Part shown: positions 10,041-29,643 of the stretch, piece after piece
How positions within the stretch are numbered: position 1 is the stretch's first letter
Layout: each line of letters opens with the position of its first letter
The notes under the pieces: model-generated
The model's database searches: none
Told to the model about the DNA's origin: nothing
Seen by the model: only the letters and a program-made list of their open reading frames with translations
Made by a program: the position numbers and the translations under genes
Virus genome (UHGV): UHGV-1546770
Strand: one strand, 5' to 3'
Source of the DNA: a virus
DNA: 31,581 nt

Positions 10041-11051
10041 TCAGTCTCCTTTACCTTTTAAACTATTTATATATCTATCTAACTCTTCTTGTGTGATATA
10101 TCCTTTTTCAATTGCATCTTCCGCATACAACCAATGCAATGCCTCGCCTGTTTGTGGATGTTTATACGTATAATTTTGTTTACCTCTACAGCACTTTGTA
10201 ATAGAGCTTGGATCACATCCATATAAATTTTGTACTTCTTTTGCTCCCCAAAAAATTTGATTTAATTCTATACAATATATTCTTCTACATTTCCACCAAT
10301 TACTACCTTTACGAGAATCACTCATCTTTTTCTTTGCTTCTTCTGTGTGATGTTTCCCATACATTGGATGATTGCTTGGATTTATAAATCTTTCTTTTGC
10401 TTTTTCTGATAGATTTAATTTTTGTTCATCTGACAATTTTTTACCTAAACTGGGATGTTGTTTTCCTATCCATATATGTTTGCCTTTAGTTGTTGGATTT
10501 GCCCAATATAATTTATGTTTTTCATACCATTGTTTATATGTTTCTTCATCCATGCGTTCTTTTGGAGAAACTTTAAACTGTGGATTATTCTCGCCTACTA
10601 ATCCTGCTCTTCCATACATTGGATGATTATTTGGATCTGAAAGTCTTTCTTTTGCAGCTTTTGATATCTTTTTTCTTGTTTCTTTACTTGGAGTCCATCC
10701 TTGCGTTGTTCCTCCACCATAAACAAGATTATACCAATTGTTAGATTCAACAGCATTAAAGAAAACACTATAATTATATTCCATTTCATTTAATTCTTCT
10801 GCAGAATAAGCAATATCAATTACATTTCTTACAAAATTTTCTTTTCCATATTTGTCAATTGCTTGTTTAAATGCTGCACCACTACCAAGATATTCTTGCC
10901 AATTTCCATAGAATTTTCTTTGGCCTAAATATCTTTTGCCATCAATCAAATTCGTTGTGATATAAATAAATCCATATGGATCTTTTACTTCCGTATATGT
11001 TGTATCTTGTAGCCCATCAACGGAAGAATTCATTTCTTTTAATTCTTCCAT
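10041..11051 (-). CDS. GIY-YIG homing endonuclease with NUMOD3 repeats and NUMOD1-like HTH
   Basis: N-terminal YGFIYITTNLIDGKRYLGQ (GIY-YIG), repeated NHPMYG...K..S motifs, C-terminal ELNQIFWGAKEVQNLYGCDPSSITKCCRGK helix-turn-helix. Confidence 0.7.
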   Translation of the reverse strand: MEELKEMNSSVDGLQDTTYTEVKDPYGFIYITTNLIDGKRYLGQRKFYGNWQEYLGSGAAFKQAIDKYGKENFVRNVIDIAYSAEELNEMEYNYSVFFNAVESNNWYNLVYGGGTTQGWTPSKETRKKISKAAKERLSDPNNHPMYGRAGLVGENNPQFKVSPKERMDEETYKQWYEKHKLYWANPTTKGKHIWIGKQHPSLGKKLSDEQKLNLSEKAKERFINPSNHPMYGKHHTEEAKKKMSDSRKGSNWWKCRRIYCIELNQIFWGAKEVQNLYGCDPSSITKCCRGKQNYTYKHPQTGEALHWLYAEDAIEKGYITQEELDRYINSLKGKGD

Positions 11052-12770: not shown

Positions 12771-13745
12771 TTAAACCATATCATCCAAAATATTCGCGGC
12801 TTGCTGCTTTTTGTCTTTAGACATATTTGCATATCTCATAGTAGTAGCAATATTTTTATGATTAAGAACTGACGCACAAAGATAAATATCTCCAGTCTTT
12901 TCGTACAAATTAGTTGCACAAGAATGTCTCAACACATGTGGTGTAACATGCTTACTTGTCACATCCTTACTATATTTTTCTAGCATCACCCTAATGCCGT
13001 CTCTTGTAATTCTCTTTTTAAAGCTAGAAATAAACAAGGCATCTGTATTCGCCATGCTAAAATATTTGTTTCTATCCTGTAGCCACAATTCTAGCTGCTT
13101 CTTTACTCTATCGCCAAATAGAATATTACATGTTTTTCCTCTTTTTTCGATTACCTTAATAGTATTATTTTCGAAATCAATATCACCAATATCAATTTGC
13201 GTGATTGCAGATACACGCAACCCAGTAGTTAGTCCAAGCATAATAATGGCTAGATCCCTATTTTTCATCTTTTTGCTTGCAAGCTTATCAACATTTTCAA
13301 GAATCATTTGCATTTCTTTTTCTGTTAAATAAGCAACATCTGGTGTATCTTGCACTTTAGGACGTTCTGTTCTCTCCATTGGATTTTCTTTAATATAATC
13401 ATTTTCTTTAAGGAACCCAAAAAACGTATTCAATGCAGACCACTTTGTCGCACGAATACTATCACTTGTATTATAATGTCCATTGATAGTTTCTTTATTC
13501 TTCAATGCGGCAAAATATTTATTAATATCCAAAGGTGTTACCTTTTTATAAAAATCATTTGAGATTCTATTTTCATTAATAAATTCTGCAAATTCCTTCA
13601 CATATGCTACATATCTCTCAACTGTTGTATAAGATTTAGTTATACACATATAATAATAAAATTCAGAAAAAATTTTAGGAAGTCCTGTTAATTTTGCCTG
13701 CATCTTATTTGTAGCAACAATTTCCTTTTCCATTCTTCCTGTCAT
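12771..13745 (-). CDS. tyrosine recombinase / integrase (XerC/XerD-like)
   Basis: Catalytic-domain motifs TGLRVSA (Arg), HVLRHSCAT (His-x-x-Arg-His) and TMRYANM (Tyr) in the expected order. Confidence 0.85.
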   Translation of the reverse strand: MTGRMEKEIVATNKMQAKLTGLPKIFSEFYYYMCITKSYTTVERYVAYVKEFAEFINENRISNDFYKKVTPLDINKYFAALKNKETINGHYNTSDSIRATKWSALNTFFGFLKENDYIKENPMERTERPKVQDTPDVAYLTEKEMQMILENVDKLASKKMKNRDLAIIMLGLTTGLRVSAITQIDIGDIDFENNTIKVIEKRGKTCNILFGDRVKKQLELWLQDRNKYFSMANTDALFISSFKKRITRDGIRVMLEKYSKDVTSKHVTPHVLRHSCATNLYEKTGDIYLCASVLNHKNIATTMRYANMSKDKKQQAANILDDMV

Positions 13746-22784: not shown

Positions 22785-23762
22785 TTAAGCTCCAACCCCA
22801 ACCTTTGCGTTAATCAGCTTGACGAACTCGTCCATCCATGCATGACCATCCATAATCTTTCCCCACCGGTTTTCTTCATAGTTTGCAGTGTTTCTGTTCG
22901 GAGCGCTATGACCAATCATATCACTCATCGCATTCACAGCGCCCCATGCAGTTCCTTTGAACTTAGCAATATCGGGCATGAAGTAGCAGATAGAATAGTT
23001 ATCTTTTACTTTCTGAATGTTTGCTTTCTTGCGATCAGAATCATTTTCCGTTACAGGGAACATCTGGTCAAGGATTTCATTGATCTGCTCAAAGTCAAGT
23101 TTGATATTCGCAAGTCTATCTGCCTCTTCGTCAAGTGCATCCATATAAAGATTTGCCATGCCCAAACAATGTCTCGCTTCTTCAAGCTTCTCGTCAAGAT
23201 TCCCAATATGCTTTGTGCTCCAAGAACGCTGAGCAGTATTGAGTGCAAGTGAGAGAGTATTATTGCAAACGACTCGAATTGGAGTCATGCCAATCTTGAT
23301 CGCTCCAGTTCCGTCATGAGAATTAGAGAACACCATATAAGGTTCCACATCATCATCAAGCACTTTCTTAGTCGGCATCTTTGCAAGCAGCCAAACTCTT
23401 TTCCCTCCGTTGAGAGAACCTGCGGTTTCATAGCGAACAATTCCATCTTCCGTTTCACCAACAATTGCATCAGTGAAAGAAAATGCGTCTACATTCTGTA
23501 CAATTTTATATCTATTCGTTACAATGCCAAGCACAGTTTTATCATCACTTCTGATGTTTGCTTTGTAGTTCTTGATTTCCGTTCCATCATCCATAAAGAC
23601 AGGAGTCTGTTCAACAGTCCAATCAAGCCCTGCCAGTTTGAGCGCTTCTGCACTGTTGGGAGCATCCGCAAGGATTTTGCATCTATCCTGCGTCTCCATA
23701 TAATGCCAAGGTTTCTCGCGTACACTAAACATGCTGTCGTTCATTTCAATGCAATGAGCCAT
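22785..23762 (-). CDS. DUF932 / TIGR03299-like phage-plasmid protein (start trimmed from track ORF 22785-23882)
   Basis: Motif MVFSNSHDGTGAIKIGMTPIRVVCNNTL matches the family signature as recalled from memory; internal ATG at 23760-23762 preceded by AAAGGAG. Confidence 0.55.
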   Translation of the reverse strand: MAHCIEMNDSMFSVREKPWHYMETQDRCKILADAPNSAEALKLAGLDWTVEQTPVFMDDGTEIKNYKANIRSDDKTVLGIVTNRYKIVQNVDAFSFTDAIVGETEDGIVRYETAGSLNGGKRVWLLAKMPTKKVLDDDVEPYMVFSNSHDGTGAIKIGMTPIRVVCNNTLSLALNTAQRSWSTKHIGNLDEKLEEARHCLGMANLYMDALDEEADRLANIKLDFEQINEILDQMFPVTENDSDRKKANIQKVKDNYSICYFMPDIAKFKGTAWGAVNAMSDMIGHSAPNRNTANYEENRWGKIMDGHAWMDEFVKLINAKVGVGA

Positions 23763-23994
23763 AATTCTTATCTCCTTTAACAAAATACATATTGATTCTT
23801 GCTTTTCTTGCTTTTCTTTTTTTCTTTTTTGCCGCACGCTGTTTCCAAACAGGATGGTCTGGGTACATTTCAAAACAATCACATTGTTTTTGCAAGCATC
23901 TTTTTCGTTCTACTTGATTCCATGTCGCTCCCTTGTCATGAAAATGGCAGTAACCACACACATTGTCGCTTTCTGACCCATACAAGCAAAGCAT
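23746..23994 (-). CDS. hypothetical zinc-ribbon protein with basic tail (82 aa)
   Basis: AAAAGGAGG RBS; CGYCHFHD...CDCF motifs and a KKKKRKARKAR stretch; 17-nt overlap with the downstream gene. Confidence 0.5.
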   Translation of the reverse strand: MLCLYGSESDNVCGYCHFHDKGATWNQVERKRCLQKQCDCFEMYPDHPVWKQRAAKKKKRKARKARINMYFVKGDKNYGSLH

Positions 23995-25668: not shown

Positions 25669-25806
25669 TTAGATTTTTACCAGCGTGTCGGCAAGCTGGA
25701 TAGCAATACCTAAGATTGTTAAAATGAGAACAATAATCCCGTCTTTCCTGTCGTCATCTCCGAATAGCAGTACACAAGCAATGATGATAAGCAAAATAGC
25801 AATCAT
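25669..25806 (-). CDS. small single-pass membrane peptide (~45 aa; start trimmed from track ORF 25669-25893)
   Basis: Internal ATG preceded by GGAG; sequence MIAILLIIIACVLLFG...ILTILGIAIQLADTLVKI is almost entirely hydrophobic. Confidence 0.45.
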   Translation of the reverse strand: MIAILLIIIACVLLFGDDDRKDGIIVLILTILGIAIQLADTLVKI

Positions 25807-25951
25807 TTGTTTTACTCCATATACTTTTGTATTGTTTATTGTTTTTGTATTAATTTTCCATGTTATATTCGCATTTTTTGATAGTGGCTTCATTTACATT
25901 GCAAACTATACTGCTCAAAATTGAAATTATATTTTGCGTTCTATATACGCA

Positions 25952-26095
25952 TTAAATGATGCCACATGAACTTGCAATCATTGCAATAATTGCAAGGAAC
26001 AAGATGCCTCCGAGCAAGCTCCCGATACCAGATTTGGTAGCATCTTTTCCAAAAAGCAGTACACAAACAATAATGATTAGCAGAATAACAATCAT
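25952..26095 (-). CDS. small membrane peptide (~47 aa), paralog of 25669-25806; below the ORF-track cutoff
   Basis: GGAGGTAAAATCA before the ATG; MIVILLIIIVCVLLFGKDATKSG... resembles the neighbouring peptide; coordinates hand-counted. Confidence 0.4.
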   Translation of the reverse strand: MIVILLIIIVCVLLFGKDATKSGIGSLLGGILFLAIIAMIASSCGII

Positions 26096-26116: not shown

Positions 26117-27067
26117 TTAATAATACTTGTATGCATCTTTGTCAACATTTACGTCAGTGATATCTCCATATGTGATATCAGAATGTGCCATCAAGAATCT
26201 ACCAATTGCCTCTTCCATTGAATATGCGTCCGTGTCGTACCACTCTGTGTTTCCGTTAGTGTTAACATACTCAATCAGATAATAGCCATAATTGTATTCT
26301 GGCTCATCACGATTATTGTCTTCAAGATATCTGTCAATGTCAAACAGAGAATCATATCGCACAGGTGCTTCCACATAATCGAATTTGTCATTCTCCGTTG
26401 TGCGCTCAAGGATTTTACATGCCTCCTTAATGCTTCTTTCCATTTCAGAAAGAATGACATATTCACTTTTTGTATGTGCTTTGTAATAACCACAAGAAAG
26501 ATTCACTGCTGCACAACCAAGAGCGGGAGCGATTTCACAGATATCAGAATAAGATCCATACGCTGTTTTATAAAATTCCTTTGTAATAAAGTCCTCGAAC
26601 TCATCATTTGCACAGGAATAAAACACTGCATCATTTGCGTTGGCACGATCAAATTCAATGATGTAATTGAACTCAAGATTTCTTGCCAGCTCAGAGTCTG
26701 CAAACTTACTTGAGCCTACGCAACCAACCTCTTCGTCCTCGCAGAACAGAACAGAGCAGTTAAACTTTTCAAGAATCTTGAAAATCATATAGACACCGCA
26801 TCTATCGTCGCCTCCGATTCCGTTAGGGCTTGAAACTTTATTGTTCTTTTTACTATACATGAACATATTAGGAAGCTTTTCATGCACAGTATCAAGATGT
26901 GCAACCAGCAGCACAGGAAATTTCCCTTGTGCATATACATACCCATCTCTGTTAAGAACTGTTCCATGAGTCTTTTGCAGCTTCTGTCTAACATGATTCT
27001 TTAGACTTGCTTGAGACATCTTGCAAATTTTTTCAAACTCTTTATTCATAATTGATTTTACCTCCAT
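26117..27067 (-). CDS. putative co-catalytic zinc metallopeptidase-like protein (316 aa)
   Basis: Ordered motifs VLLVAHLDTVHE, GIGGDDRCGV and FCEDEEVGCVGS resemble the His/Asp, Asp-Asp and Glu-Glu metal-ligand blocks of M20/M28/M42-type enzymes; assignment from motif memory only. Confidence 0.45.
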   Translation of the reverse strand: MEVKSIMNKEFEKICKMSQASLKNHVRQKLQKTHGTVLNRDGYVYAQGKFPVLLVAHLDTVHEKLPNMFMYSKKNNKVSSPNGIGGDDRCGVYMIFKILEKFNCSVLFCEDEEVGCVGSSKFADSELARNLEFNYIIEFDRANANDAVFYSCANDEFEDFITKEFYKTAYGSYSDICEIAPALGCAAVNLSCGYYKAHTKSEYVILSEMERSIKEACKILERTTENDKFDYVEAPVRYDSLFDIDRYLEDNNRDEPEYNYGYYLIEYVNTNGNTEWYDTDAYSMEEAIGRFLMAHSDITYGDITDVNVDKDAYKYY

Positions 27068-28869
27068 TAAACCGCTTCATCAATGTCTGTTTCATTCTCA
27101 AGAATTTCTCTCAGGCAATCTTCGCAGTACATCTTTCCTTTGTGTTCTCTCAAATTGTTGTTTCTAAAACATTCTCCACACTCTTCACAGCAACTATAAT
27201 AATAATCACAACAATCGTCGCACACATATTCATCCTGAGATTCAATATAGTTCATACACTCTCTTGGATAATATTCTCCACATTCCGCGCAATACTCATA
27301 ATATTCGTCTCTGCAATTTTCACAGACACAAATTTCATAGCCTCTTGAATTATGAACATATGTCCCTTCGCCAACGTAATATTCATCACAGTCATTGCAA
27401 TGGAAAACACAATCTCCACAATAAGGCTCTCCGTCAATATAGATGGCATCATCTTCATCGACATATTCGCCGCATGCAGCACATTTAACTCCGTGATGAC
27501 AGCAAGAAATATTGTCGTCGCAATCATGCTCATAACCACATTCGATGCAAATTGGTGTATGTCCAACAGTAATGCAATTCTCGTTGTCGTTTCCTTTAGG
27601 ACGGCTAAGAGTGCAATTTCCAAAGTTGTCGTAATCTCTATAATGAGTACCTTCAGACTCAATATATCTGCCTGCTTCGCTAGTTCCCTTACTCACAGTC
27701 CAGAAGTTCGGGAAATCAAAAATTTCAGACATGATTTTCTGAACAATTGCTCTGAAAGCGGTGTAGCCGGTGCTGCATCCATCATTGTCTTGCGGATAAA
27801 GTCTGCCCTGAATCAGTTTGTCTTCTCCCCAGTGATACATCTGACGGTTAATCTTTGGCTCATTCCAGAAATCGTTTCCATCATAAGATGCATCCACAGT
27901 GTAAAACACCATAGAAGGAGAATCGAGCATATAACTAATAGTACCAGAAGAATACATTCCCTGATAACTATTAGGCATGCCTCTTTTGTTTTGCTTATCA
28001 ATTGTATGACAGCTCGCCCAGCTATTGCCAAAGCTCATTGTGAGATAATCAAGAGGATTCACAGAAAGAATAGTATGCCTTGTAATCTTGAGCGGATTGA
28101 GCGCGTCAGCATACTTTGCGAATTCCCTATTGTACTCAGGATGCTTGCTAATACCAATGTAAGCAAGAAGCTTATTGATAACACGACTCGTCTTCTGCCC
28201 GTCATGTGCATGAATTTCAGGACAAATTCTGTTTAGCTCATCAGCAAGTTCGCTATCAATATACTGAGAAGTATAGGCTGGAATTCTAATCAAGAAAGCA
28301 AAGATATTTGTTGGGTATTTCTGTCCATTCAGTGAAGTTTCTTTCTTCATGCTTTCGGGCATAAAATTATTTTCTTTTACATATTCGACCACATCACCAT
28401 CAATCACCCATGACTTGAATCTCTCCAATGCATTACGATCAGTTACACGTTCAAAATCATGGCTAAATACAATCATGAATTTGCCTTCCAGATAGTTCGG
28501 ATGCTTCTTAAATGCGGCAATCAGGTCTTTCTTGTTATTCGCCCATGTGTCAATGATTTTGTTCAGTGCCCTGTCCGTATATTCATAGTCATATTCATCA
28601 AGCAAGTTTTCCATCTGGTCAAGAAGAATTTCTCTTTCTTCTTCAGTGATAATATTACTTACATCCATTTTACTTTCTCCTTCCTTTTCATCAAGCAAAT
28701 CAAAGTATTGCGCATCTACCCAATAGCCTTCGCCGTTTATGTTTTTAACAAAAATGTTGTCGTCAGTATATTTACTAATCTCTACAACACGCCCTCTCCA
28801 ACCGTTTGTTGTGATGCCATAAGGAGCACCACGCTGTGCAATTACTCTATCACCAAGTTTAAATTTCAT
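27067..28869 (-). CDS. large hypothetical protein (600 aa) with C-terminal tandem zinc-ribbon array
   Basis: Longest ORF in the window; C-terminal ~150 aa contain at least 8 CxxC pairs in repeated units (CAACGEYV, CNDCDEYY, CENCRDEYY, CAECGEYY, CEECGEC); plus-strand ORF 27352-28236 is its shadow. Confidence 0.65.
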   Translation of the reverse strand: MKFKLGDRVIAQRGAPYGITTNGWRGRVVEISKYTDDNIFVKNINGEGYWVDAQYFDLLDEKEGESKMDVSNIITEEEREILLDQMENLLDEYDYEYTDRALNKIIDTWANNKKDLIAAFKKHPNYLEGKFMIVFSHDFERVTDRNALERFKSWVIDGDVVEYVKENNFMPESMKKETSLNGQKYPTNIFAFLIRIPAYTSQYIDSELADELNRICPEIHAHDGQKTSRVINKLLAYIGISKHPEYNREFAKYADALNPLKITRHTILSVNPLDYLTMSFGNSWASCHTIDKQNKRGMPNSYQGMYSSGTISYMLDSPSMVFYTVDASYDGNDFWNEPKINRQMYHWGEDKLIQGRLYPQDNDGCSTGYTAFRAIVQKIMSEIFDFPNFWTVSKGTSEAGRYIESEGTHYRDYDNFGNCTLSRPKGNDNENCITVGHTPICIECGYEHDCDDNISCCHHGVKCAACGEYVDEDDAIYIDGEPYCGDCVFHCNDCDEYYVGEGTYVHNSRGYEICVCENCRDEYYEYCAECGEYYPRECMNYIESQDEYVCDDCCDYYYSCCEECGECFRNNNLREHKGKMYCEDCLREILENETDIDEAV

Positions 28870-28884
28870 TTTCTATTTCCTCCT

Positions 28885-29343
28885 TTATCCGACCAATGCA
28901 CTGTAGCATCTGTCAAATCTTTCTTTATAGCTGTTAAGCTCTTCCTGAAGCTCTCTGTTCTTGAACTGAAGCATAGTCTTTTCCGTTTCAAGCTCGTCAT
29001 TTCTCATCATGGCAGCATCGTAATCTTCTCTTGACACACCGTTCCGTTTCATTTCAATGATACTTGCGGAAATAGCGGCTACATTATAGCCCATTTCAGA
29101 AATGTAACAGAACTGCTTTCCATTTCCTGTGTGATTATGTGAAGTGCCACCACAAGTTTTCTGTCTTCCAGCAATCTGATTAAGAAGGGACGAATAACTA
29201 ATGCCATAACAATTAGCCGCATCACGTGCCGACTTGAACACCTCACCAGTCGTGATGCACATGACCGCTTTTCCTTTGTGGATGTCTTTGTTTTCTGGGA
29301 TGATGTCGTACTTTGCGCGGCTAACAATAACGTTCTTTTTCAT
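28885..29343 (-). CDS. NUMOD1-like HTH DNA-binding protein with C-terminal coiled coil (152 aa)
   Basis: KAVMCITTGEVFKSARDAANCYGISYSSLLNQIAGRQKTCGG resembles the NUMOD1 module of homing endonucleases; no nuclease motif seen. Confidence 0.45.
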   Translation of the reverse strand: MKKNVIVSRAKYDIIPENKDIHKGKAVMCITTGEVFKSARDAANCYGISYSSLLNQIAGRQKTCGGTSHNHTGNGKQFCYISEMGYNVAAISASIIEMKRNGVSREDYDAAMMRNDELETEKTMLQFKNRELQEELNSYKERFDRCYSALVG

Positions 29344-29397: not shown

Positions 29398-29643
29398 TTA
29401 AACTTCTTCAAATTCCTCGCAATCAGTAACTTCAATAGGAGTTACATCTTGCATATAATACTTTGAGTCGCCACAGTTGCAATAATAATGCTTTATCGCA
29501 TCCGTGTCCTTATTCTTGTTTGCCTCGTAAAAGGTCTCTCCAAAGCTCTTGCAGTCACCAAGATAACCACAATCTACACACTTTAAGCTCATTTTTCTTA
29601 CTCCTCCACTTGTTCTATGATGTTGAGTTGTTTGAAAATGCAC
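29398..29643 (-). CDS. hypothetical zinc-ribbon protein (81 aa)
   Basis: CVDCGYLGDC...CNCGD motifs. Confidence 0.5.
   Translation of the reverse strand: MHFQTTQHHRTSGGVRKMSLKCVDCGYLGDCKSFGETFYEANKNKDTDAIKHYYCNCGDSKYYMQDVTPIEVTDCEEFEEV

Follow-up and report, generated by a model that had tools for sequence, protein, structure and literature searches.

A conserved gene pair of gut phages joins an uncharacterised multidomain protein to a predicted M20/M28-type exopeptidase

The core gene and its peptidase partner

Dinuclear-zinc exopeptidases of the M20/M28 type, such as PepT, carboxypeptidase G2 (CPG2) and the M28 aminopeptidases, are recognised by five metal ligands (H, D, E, D/E, H) together with a catalytic Asp and a catalytic Glu. 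LIM domains have eight ligands that form two contiguous zinc fingers, with the pattern C-x2-C-x16-23-[HC]-x2-C-x2-C-x2-C-x16-21-C-x2-[CHD]. Among phage proteins, relatives of the protein described here are found in PHROG 29713 and 18912, two families of unknown function from the Enterococcus phages VRE9, EF1 and EF5. The locus that we compare with these systems lies in a stretch of 31,581 nucleotides (nt) from the virus genome UHGV-1546770, referred to below as the window. Its core gene (27067..28869, minus strand) encodes a strongly acidic, multidomain protein of 600 amino acids (aa) and is the longest open reading frame (ORF) in the window, as an original prediction made from the sequence alone had stated. 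The ATG of this gene at 28869 is preceded by AGGAGG 8 nt upstream. Directly downstream of the core gene is a gene for an M28-like peptidase (26117..27067, minus strand, 316 aa counted from the first ATG). We infer, with a probability of roughly one in three, that the two genes form an early-expressed module of two enzymes acting on a protein target.

For the analysis of this pairing we gathered 98 related loci from metagenome assemblies, IMG/VR, metagenome-assembled genomes (MAGs), cultured phages, and one replicon deposited as a plasmid. A single-sequence phmmer search found an M28-like protein in 93 of the first 94 loci, nearly always directly after the core gene and on the same strand. When adjacency was scored as the presence of an M28-like gene on the same strand within 800 nt of the core gene, it held after dereplication in 13 of 14 clusters at 50% identity and in 24 of 25 at 70%, and the sole exception was a contig that ends ~300 nt past the core gene. 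Adjacency persists in all evaluable loci down to a core identity of 26%. It is also found in L004, L005, L006, L095, L096, and the Vescimonas replicon pMM35_02, whose partner was recognised with an hhalign probability of 100. Core and peptidase have diverged together (Mantel r=0.48, a value reached by 1 of 2,000 permutations), and their genes are tightly packed, with either a TAA/ATG overlap or a gap of 17 nt. No terminator was found between them, though our scan for promoters and terminators gave counts equal to those of shuffled sequences and is therefore uninformative. The pair occurs in gut phages of ~150 kb, in a temperate siphophage, in Enterococcus phages, and in the 142-kb Vescimonas replicon deposited as a plasmid. 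The core gene and the downstream peptidase gene are thus a conserved two-gene module that moves as a unit among very different phages.

Judged by its sequence, the partner is a minimal exopeptidase of the M20/M28 dinuclear-zinc type with a predicted activity. It scores 28.6 bits against the Pfam family Peptidase_M28 (cutoff 21.3), a threshold also passed by the homolog in L095, and it matches phrog_34186 at 5.6e-41. The complete H-x-D / D / E-E / D / H set of metal ligands and catalytic residues is present (H57, D59, D87/D88, E112, E113, D140, and H198) and is invariant in 21 diverse partners. Its best relatives in the PDB are PepT (profile matches down to 2e-7) and carboxypeptidase G2 (3e-4). 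The partner differs from these enzymes in that its catalytic domain is only ~230 residues long and lacks the M20 lid/dimerisation domain, in the Tyr/Gly-rich linker and small acidic C-terminal domain that follow, and in the constant presence of the uncharacterised core gene beside its own. The first ATG of the peptidase gene overlaps the TAA of the core gene, and a second ATG 18 nt further on (Met7, 27049) is preceded by GGAGG. Met7 is probably the real start, giving a protein of 310 aa with the length seen in close relatives. Several partners, among them L056:7853-8980, L048:7606-8586, and L006:9741-10769, have low-complexity Tyr/Gly-rich linkers such as YGYGYGYGGNYGGYYGNYYDDDDD, of which the partner in the window has only a short version.

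The core has 1,838 homologs at 90% clustering. A search of 1.84 billion representatives gave 1,692 clusters at 50% identity (696 of them with E<=1e-30), nearly all from phages of gut metagenomes. The original prediction placed the core protein in no well-characterised family, and this was borne out: Pfam, NCBIfam, and PADLOC were blank for the core and for up to 65 diverse homologs, and PHROGs offered families of unknown function only. The sole library match was a weak one, of phrog_19517 to the Cys region of the core. In PADLOC, neither the core nor three homologs had a match, and the peptidase had only a weak one to PDC-S15 (E=3.7e-4). A blastn search against cultured phages found nothing, while tblastn matched Enterococcus phages, the one replicon deposited as a plasmid, and nothing else. 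A scan of 185,579 species genomes returned only eight loci, all on MAG contigs, and a homology search seeded with an Enterococcus paralog gave only nine unnamed proteins. In the literature searched, we found no description of the core family or of its pairing with a peptidase.

The Enterococcus families PHROG 29713 and 18912 are distant homologs of the core (hhalign probabilities of 99.3 and 98.9, respectively). They retain a SxxPxD..S..WxSC signature and adjoin an M28-like gene of phrog_34186, and they differ from the core in their low identity to it (21-28%), in the replacement of His288 by Met in one of them, and in having several paralogs per genome. Enterococcus phage VRE9_3 (PP680569.1, 76914-87711) carries three members, namely a 623-aa protein of phrog_29713 and two of phrog_18912, and its single M28-like gene is flanked by both phrog_18912 genes. 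The opposite arrangement was seen on one contig, where two M28-like genes (L096:177-1178 and L096:4370-5485) lie around one core-family gene.

The conserved centre of the core protein

The core protein begins with a small, variable, five-stranded beta-barrel of SH3/OB-like type (residues 1-60; 28690..28869, minus strand). In AlphaFold2 (AF2) model 1 its strands span residues 8-11, 25-31, 38-42, 48-52, and 56-58, with a predicted local distance difference test score (pLDDT) of 72-80, and it is not present in P0083 and most distant members. A helical domain follows (residues 76-258; 28096..28644, minus strand), with conserved KHPNY and GQKxSRxxNK motifs, a pLDDT above 92 in AF2 model 2, and near-invariant K113, P124, R141, G224, K226, and D255. 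The most conserved part is the alpha/beta domain at residues 259-436 (27562..28095, minus strand), which has the signature SxxPxD..MS..WxSC(H)..GxYxxG..Y..KIxRxM..YP, a pattern that can be traced into the Enterococcus relatives of 21-28% identity. Thirteen positions are invariant in 150 diverse sequences (S269, G281, W284, C287, G309, S312, D316, Y323, R342, Y358, R373, W390, and D412), and the codon of the invariant Cys287 is at 28009-28011. Among close homologs, the mean pairwise identity is 0.84 in the alpha/beta domain, 0.63 in the helical domain, 0.49 in the C-terminal Cys array, and 0.45 in the N-terminal barrel. The original prediction had described a long region with no recognisable motif. 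It was right that the region has no library match, but conservation in the protein is in fact highest here (84%, against 49% for the array). What is common to the family is residues ~200-457, and some members end right after the first Cys/His cluster (residues 437-460; 27490..27561, minus strand; H437, C441, C444, H448, C456, and C457). This cluster belongs to the conserved core and is retained in most members that lack the array.

The AF2 model built from a diverse alignment is confident (pLDDT 94.9, predicted template modelling score 0.89). Foldseek found no relative of it in the PDB (best E 0.38), and only uncharacterised phage proteins among viral models. Sequence searches of the PDB, with the single sequence and with a profile of 150 sequences, gave matches only via the Cys region. 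The zinc fingers and the peptidase are of known kinds, and the central domain and the pairing are without a match in the libraries, the solved structures, and the literature searched, although a deeper fold search could yet place the central domain in a known superfamily. One candidate identity was rejected, as a comparison with the PcfJ-domain protein (PF14284) of pMM35_02 gave an hhalign probability of 0.5 and the core has no match to that Pfam family.

Residues 261-435 follow the order of secondary-structure elements seen in the GNAT acyltransferases, which include the N-terminal acetyltransferases RimI/J/L and NatD, and the long loop with invariant W284, S286, and C287 occupies the place where GNAT enzymes bind the acceptor. 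This likeness is one of strand and helix order, at the twilight level. A centre with a HIT-like or GNAT-like form might also serve metabolism, as a transferase or hydrolase that acts on a nucleotide, a cofactor, or a peptide-nucleotide conjugate. The M20-type partner would then be an amidohydrolase of the same pathway, comparable to CPG2, PepT, DapE, or ArgE, and the pair would degrade a signal or make a modified base or cofactor. We consider this unlikely: the histidine triad HxHxHxx of HIT hydrolases and transferases was not found in the core, the usual DNA-modification genes were undetected among the ORFs scanned near the module, and the variable zinc-finger and barrel ends resemble modules that dock onto macromolecules, for which a metabolic enzyme would have no need. 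The action of two enzymes on a protein target remains our preferred explanation.

The cysteine array and the NUMOD-like neighbour

Of the 31 Cys residues of the core protein, 27 fall in residues 432-585, within its C-terminal 170 residues. The core has 10 overlapping CxxC motifs, compared with 4.1±1.7 when the Cys-rich C-terminal 170 residues are shuffled (20,000 shuffles, P=0.002) and 1.6 expected from shuffles of the whole protein. The original prediction had counted at least five repeats of a strict CxxC-x-[DE]-[YE]-Y unit. A C-terminal tandem array is indeed present, but the strict unit occurs four times, and the true unit consists of two CxxC knuckles 14-21 residues apart. Four such pairs make up the LIM-like array (residues 461-590; 27100..27489, minus strand), with predicted zinc sites at 463/466/484/487, 491/494/516/519, 527/530/550/553, and 561/564/582/585. 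They are preceded by the CxxC...H...CC cluster at 441/444/448/456/457, which brings the predicted sites to about five. In AF2 model 1 the array forms pairs of beta-hairpins followed by short helices (pLDDT 80-89). No tandem repeat was found in the array at the DNA level, so the repeats must be old and diverged. None of the 20 ligand Cys varies across 20 homologs (58-95% identity), in which only 42% of the other array positions are identical, and at least one CxxC-x10-25-CxxC unit was found in 143 of 150 representatives at 50% identity. Members of the family have between 0 and 6 CxxC pairs. As the protein falls in no characterised family and its Cys repeats are conserved, the original prediction stands on both of these points.

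The profile of the family matches the LIM domains of CRP1, MLP, LMO4, and PINCH in the PDB at E-values of 5e-5 to 1e-2, and one public record of a homolog was automatically named after an LMO4 LIM structure. Units 2 and 3 (residues 463-519) read C-x2-C-x17-C-x2-C-x3-C-x2-C-x21-C-x2-C, and, as in LIM domains, the putative fingers are consecutive, pair CxxC knuckles 14-21 residues apart, and are modelled as hairpin pairs with a short helix. The array differs from LIM domains in that the spacers between fingers have 3 and 7 residues instead of 2, all of its ligands are Cys, and it is an accessory of variable copy number in a phage setting. Pfam LIM (PF00412) had no match in the core protein at E<=1 and none in 65 diverse homologs at E<=0.001. 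Because of this and of the spacer lengths, we call the array weakly LIM-like rather than LIM, and its zinc binding is a prediction.

With a charge of -24 and a pI of 4.05 the array is very acidic, and the core protein as a whole has a net charge of -48 and an acidic C-terminal tail. This acidity argues against nucleic-acid binding by the array, for which the nucleic-acid-targeting role originally suggested for the gene pair is unlikely. It would also fit a decoy. The anti-restriction proteins Ocr and ArdA are acidic mimics of DNA, and the core protein may likewise be a mimic or sponge that blocks a DNA-binding defence protein of the host, the peptidase being an independent neighbour or involved in maturation only. 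An AcrIIA9-family gene among the neighbours in some loci also fits such a role. However, conservation in the core protein peaks outside the acidic array, in a domain with invariant Ser, Cys, Asp, Arg, and Tyr, as is typical of an active site. Moreover, members without any array (L004 and L013) still have the peptidase partner, and strict adjacency over 26-95% identity would be unusual for unrelated neighbours. We thus hold the decoy explanation to be improbable and favour the two-enzyme module.

The original prediction also joined the core gene to a gene for a NUMOD-like protein, which it placed downstream. Since both genes are on the minus strand, this gene (28885..29343, 152 aa) lies upstream of the core gene, ending 15 nt before its ATG, and it is the M28-like peptidase gene that sits downstream. 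As that prediction described, the protein lacks a nuclease domain, and it has a NUMOD-like helix-turn-helix (HTH) of the homing-endonuclease type (residues ~23-66) with the pattern KxV.C..TGE.F.S..EAA of NUMOD1/I-HmuI modules, and no Pfam match to GIY-YIG, HNH, or LAGLIDADG domains. It differs from the modules of those endonucleases in being free of a nuclease, in its fusion to a C-terminal coiled coil (~96-146), and in Pfam scores below the gathering cutoff (27) for I-HmuI_NUMOD-like, at 15.8 bits (E=0.011) here and 25.7 bits (8.8e-6) in a homolog. Its closest relative in the window is the C-terminal DNA-binding module of a free-standing, SegE-like GIY-YIG homing endonuclease with NUMOD3 (10041-11051, minus strand), which lies between genes for an AAA_24 ATPase and an SSB-like protein. 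Residues 23-86 align with this module at 28% identity (BLASTP E=3e-5).

We regard a regulatory or nucleic-acid-targeting partnership between the Cys-array protein and the NUMOD-like HTH as very improbable. The 15-nt spacing, which the window shares with the closest phages, the presence of NUMOD-like homologs a few kb or less from the module in several related clades, and the resemblance of the HTH to homing-endonuclease DNA-binding modules are all in line with it. The position of the gene shifts among clades, however: a homolog abuts the core gene on its upstream side only in the clade of at least 90% identity, in the 70-80% clade it is set back upstream by ~320 nt, and in the 68% clade it comes directly after the peptidase gene. 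We detected no homolog in any locus of the distant lineages that retain the module, with cores ~26-53% identical. The neighbour that stays constant is the M28-like peptidase. This synteny has already largely refuted the proposed pair, and the charge of the array also speaks against it. The NUMOD-like gene is a lineage-specific neighbour outside the conserved module, and its product is perhaps a local regulator or the relic of a homing endonuclease. Directly upstream of it is an ORF for a Cys-rich protein of 81 aa (29398-29643, minus strand; CxxC ... CxC) without a family match.

Genomic context and proposed role

In the temperate siphophage L004 the module comes just after repressor/cro-like HTH genes and before recombination genes (ERF, YqaJ, and SSB). 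In Vescimonas fastidiosa pMM35_02 (NZ_AP023417.1, 116025-131104) it follows genes for a YodL-domain protein, an AcrIIA9-family protein, a PcfJ-domain protein, and the NAD-dependent ligase LigA. In the neighbourhoods of 15 diverse loci, ~85% of the genes had no Pfam match, and the others included DUF932, DUF5688, RadC, PcfJ, SprT-like, DUF4313, GP88, DUF551, HTH proteins, and HNH. YodL and RadC both belong to the set of domains assigned by Iyer and colleagues to early-phase effectors of mobile elements (PMC5512222).

Our explanation of the module draws on the adjacency, co-divergence, and tight packing of the two genes, the conserved centre with its variable ends and varying number of zinc units, the intact peptidase site, the acidity, the LIM-like matches, and this context. 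The constant centre would be an enzyme, or an obligate cofactor, that cooperates with the exopeptidase, and the variable acidic zinc-finger and beta-barrel ends would serve to dock both proteins on a target protein, which is probably basic. Expression would be early, from an accessory region that also holds genes for counter-defence and establishment. An early accessory effector would fit the module's place beside the lysogeny switch in L004, its enzyme-like centre that stays constant while the docking ends vary, and its obligatory exopeptidase. Our most specific guess is that the exopeptidase trims residues from the N-terminus of a protein or peptide. The central domain, with its GNAT-like order, would then acylate or otherwise modify the exposed amine via Cys287, and a host factor would be inactivated or redirected. 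The sole basis for this N-terminal version is the twilight resemblance to GNAT enzymes and that free amino termini are where both types of enzyme act. Two results weigh against a GNAT identity of the domain: neither the core nor 65 diverse homologs have an acetyltransferase match in Pfam, and the GNAT motif for coenzyme A binding (Q/RxxGxG/A) was not found in the core between b4 and a3, where the loop reads PQDNDG. It is tempting to go further and see here an unrecognised class of early phage effectors, in which a Cys-dependent enzyme of new fold and a dedicated exopeptidase are steered by LIM-like and barrel adaptors onto a host protein, for example to remodel its N-terminus, and so inactivate a defence or seize control of a host process. 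We offer this fuller version tentatively, as a possibility that is itself rather doubtful.

Some ~1,700 clusters at 50% identity lie outside Pfam and NCBIfam, and PHROGs has families of unknown function for distant relatives only. The core protein has a confident predicted structure without a solved relative, enzyme-like invariant residues, and a constant link to a metallopeptidase. Besides being common in large gut phages, the family has members in laboratory-culturable Enterococcus phages, which opens its function to direct testing. If the pair does act as enzymes on host proteins, it would bring a new catalytic domain or enzyme superfamily and a new early-infection strategy of phages. It would also represent a widespread mechanism of counter-defence or takeover in gut phages of Firmicutes, and one of the rare instances outside eukaryotes in which LIM-like zinc-finger arrays act as exchangeable adaptors. 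Even if the mechanism is wrong, the signature and the gene pairing allow annotators to label thousands of phage genes now called "hypothetical".

Nearly all long ORFs in the window are on the minus strand, and the GC skew is negative throughout. Beyond the module, the window belongs to the replication and accessory part of a phage genome and encodes the AAA_24 ATPase, the GIY-YIG/NUMOD3 homing endonuclease, the SSB-like protein, a tyrosine recombinase, a methyltransferase, GP88, DUF932, and many small unannotated ORFs. The recombinase (Phage_integrase; 12771-13745, minus strand) is located within the replication module of what is apparently a ~150-kb phage with its genes all on one strand. The DUF932 gene (TIGR03299, "phage/plasmid-like protein"; 22785-23882, minus strand) lies ~3 kb downstream of the module, and 23 of the 94 fetched loci that were scanned have a DUF932 gene near the module. 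Just downstream of the peptidase gene are two small hydrophobic ORFs (25669-25893 and 25952-26095, both minus strand) of 74 and 47 aa, which have I(A/V)ILLIII(A/V)CVLLFG in common and resemble tandem paralogs of a membrane peptide. With regard to other loci, pMM35_02 is a linear record of 142 kb that was deposited as a plasmid, and its size is near that of the ~150-kb phage contigs with the core family. On a phage contig of 60 kb, a reverse-transcriptase gene (RVT_1; L006:11486-12760) is located 1.7 kb downstream of the module.

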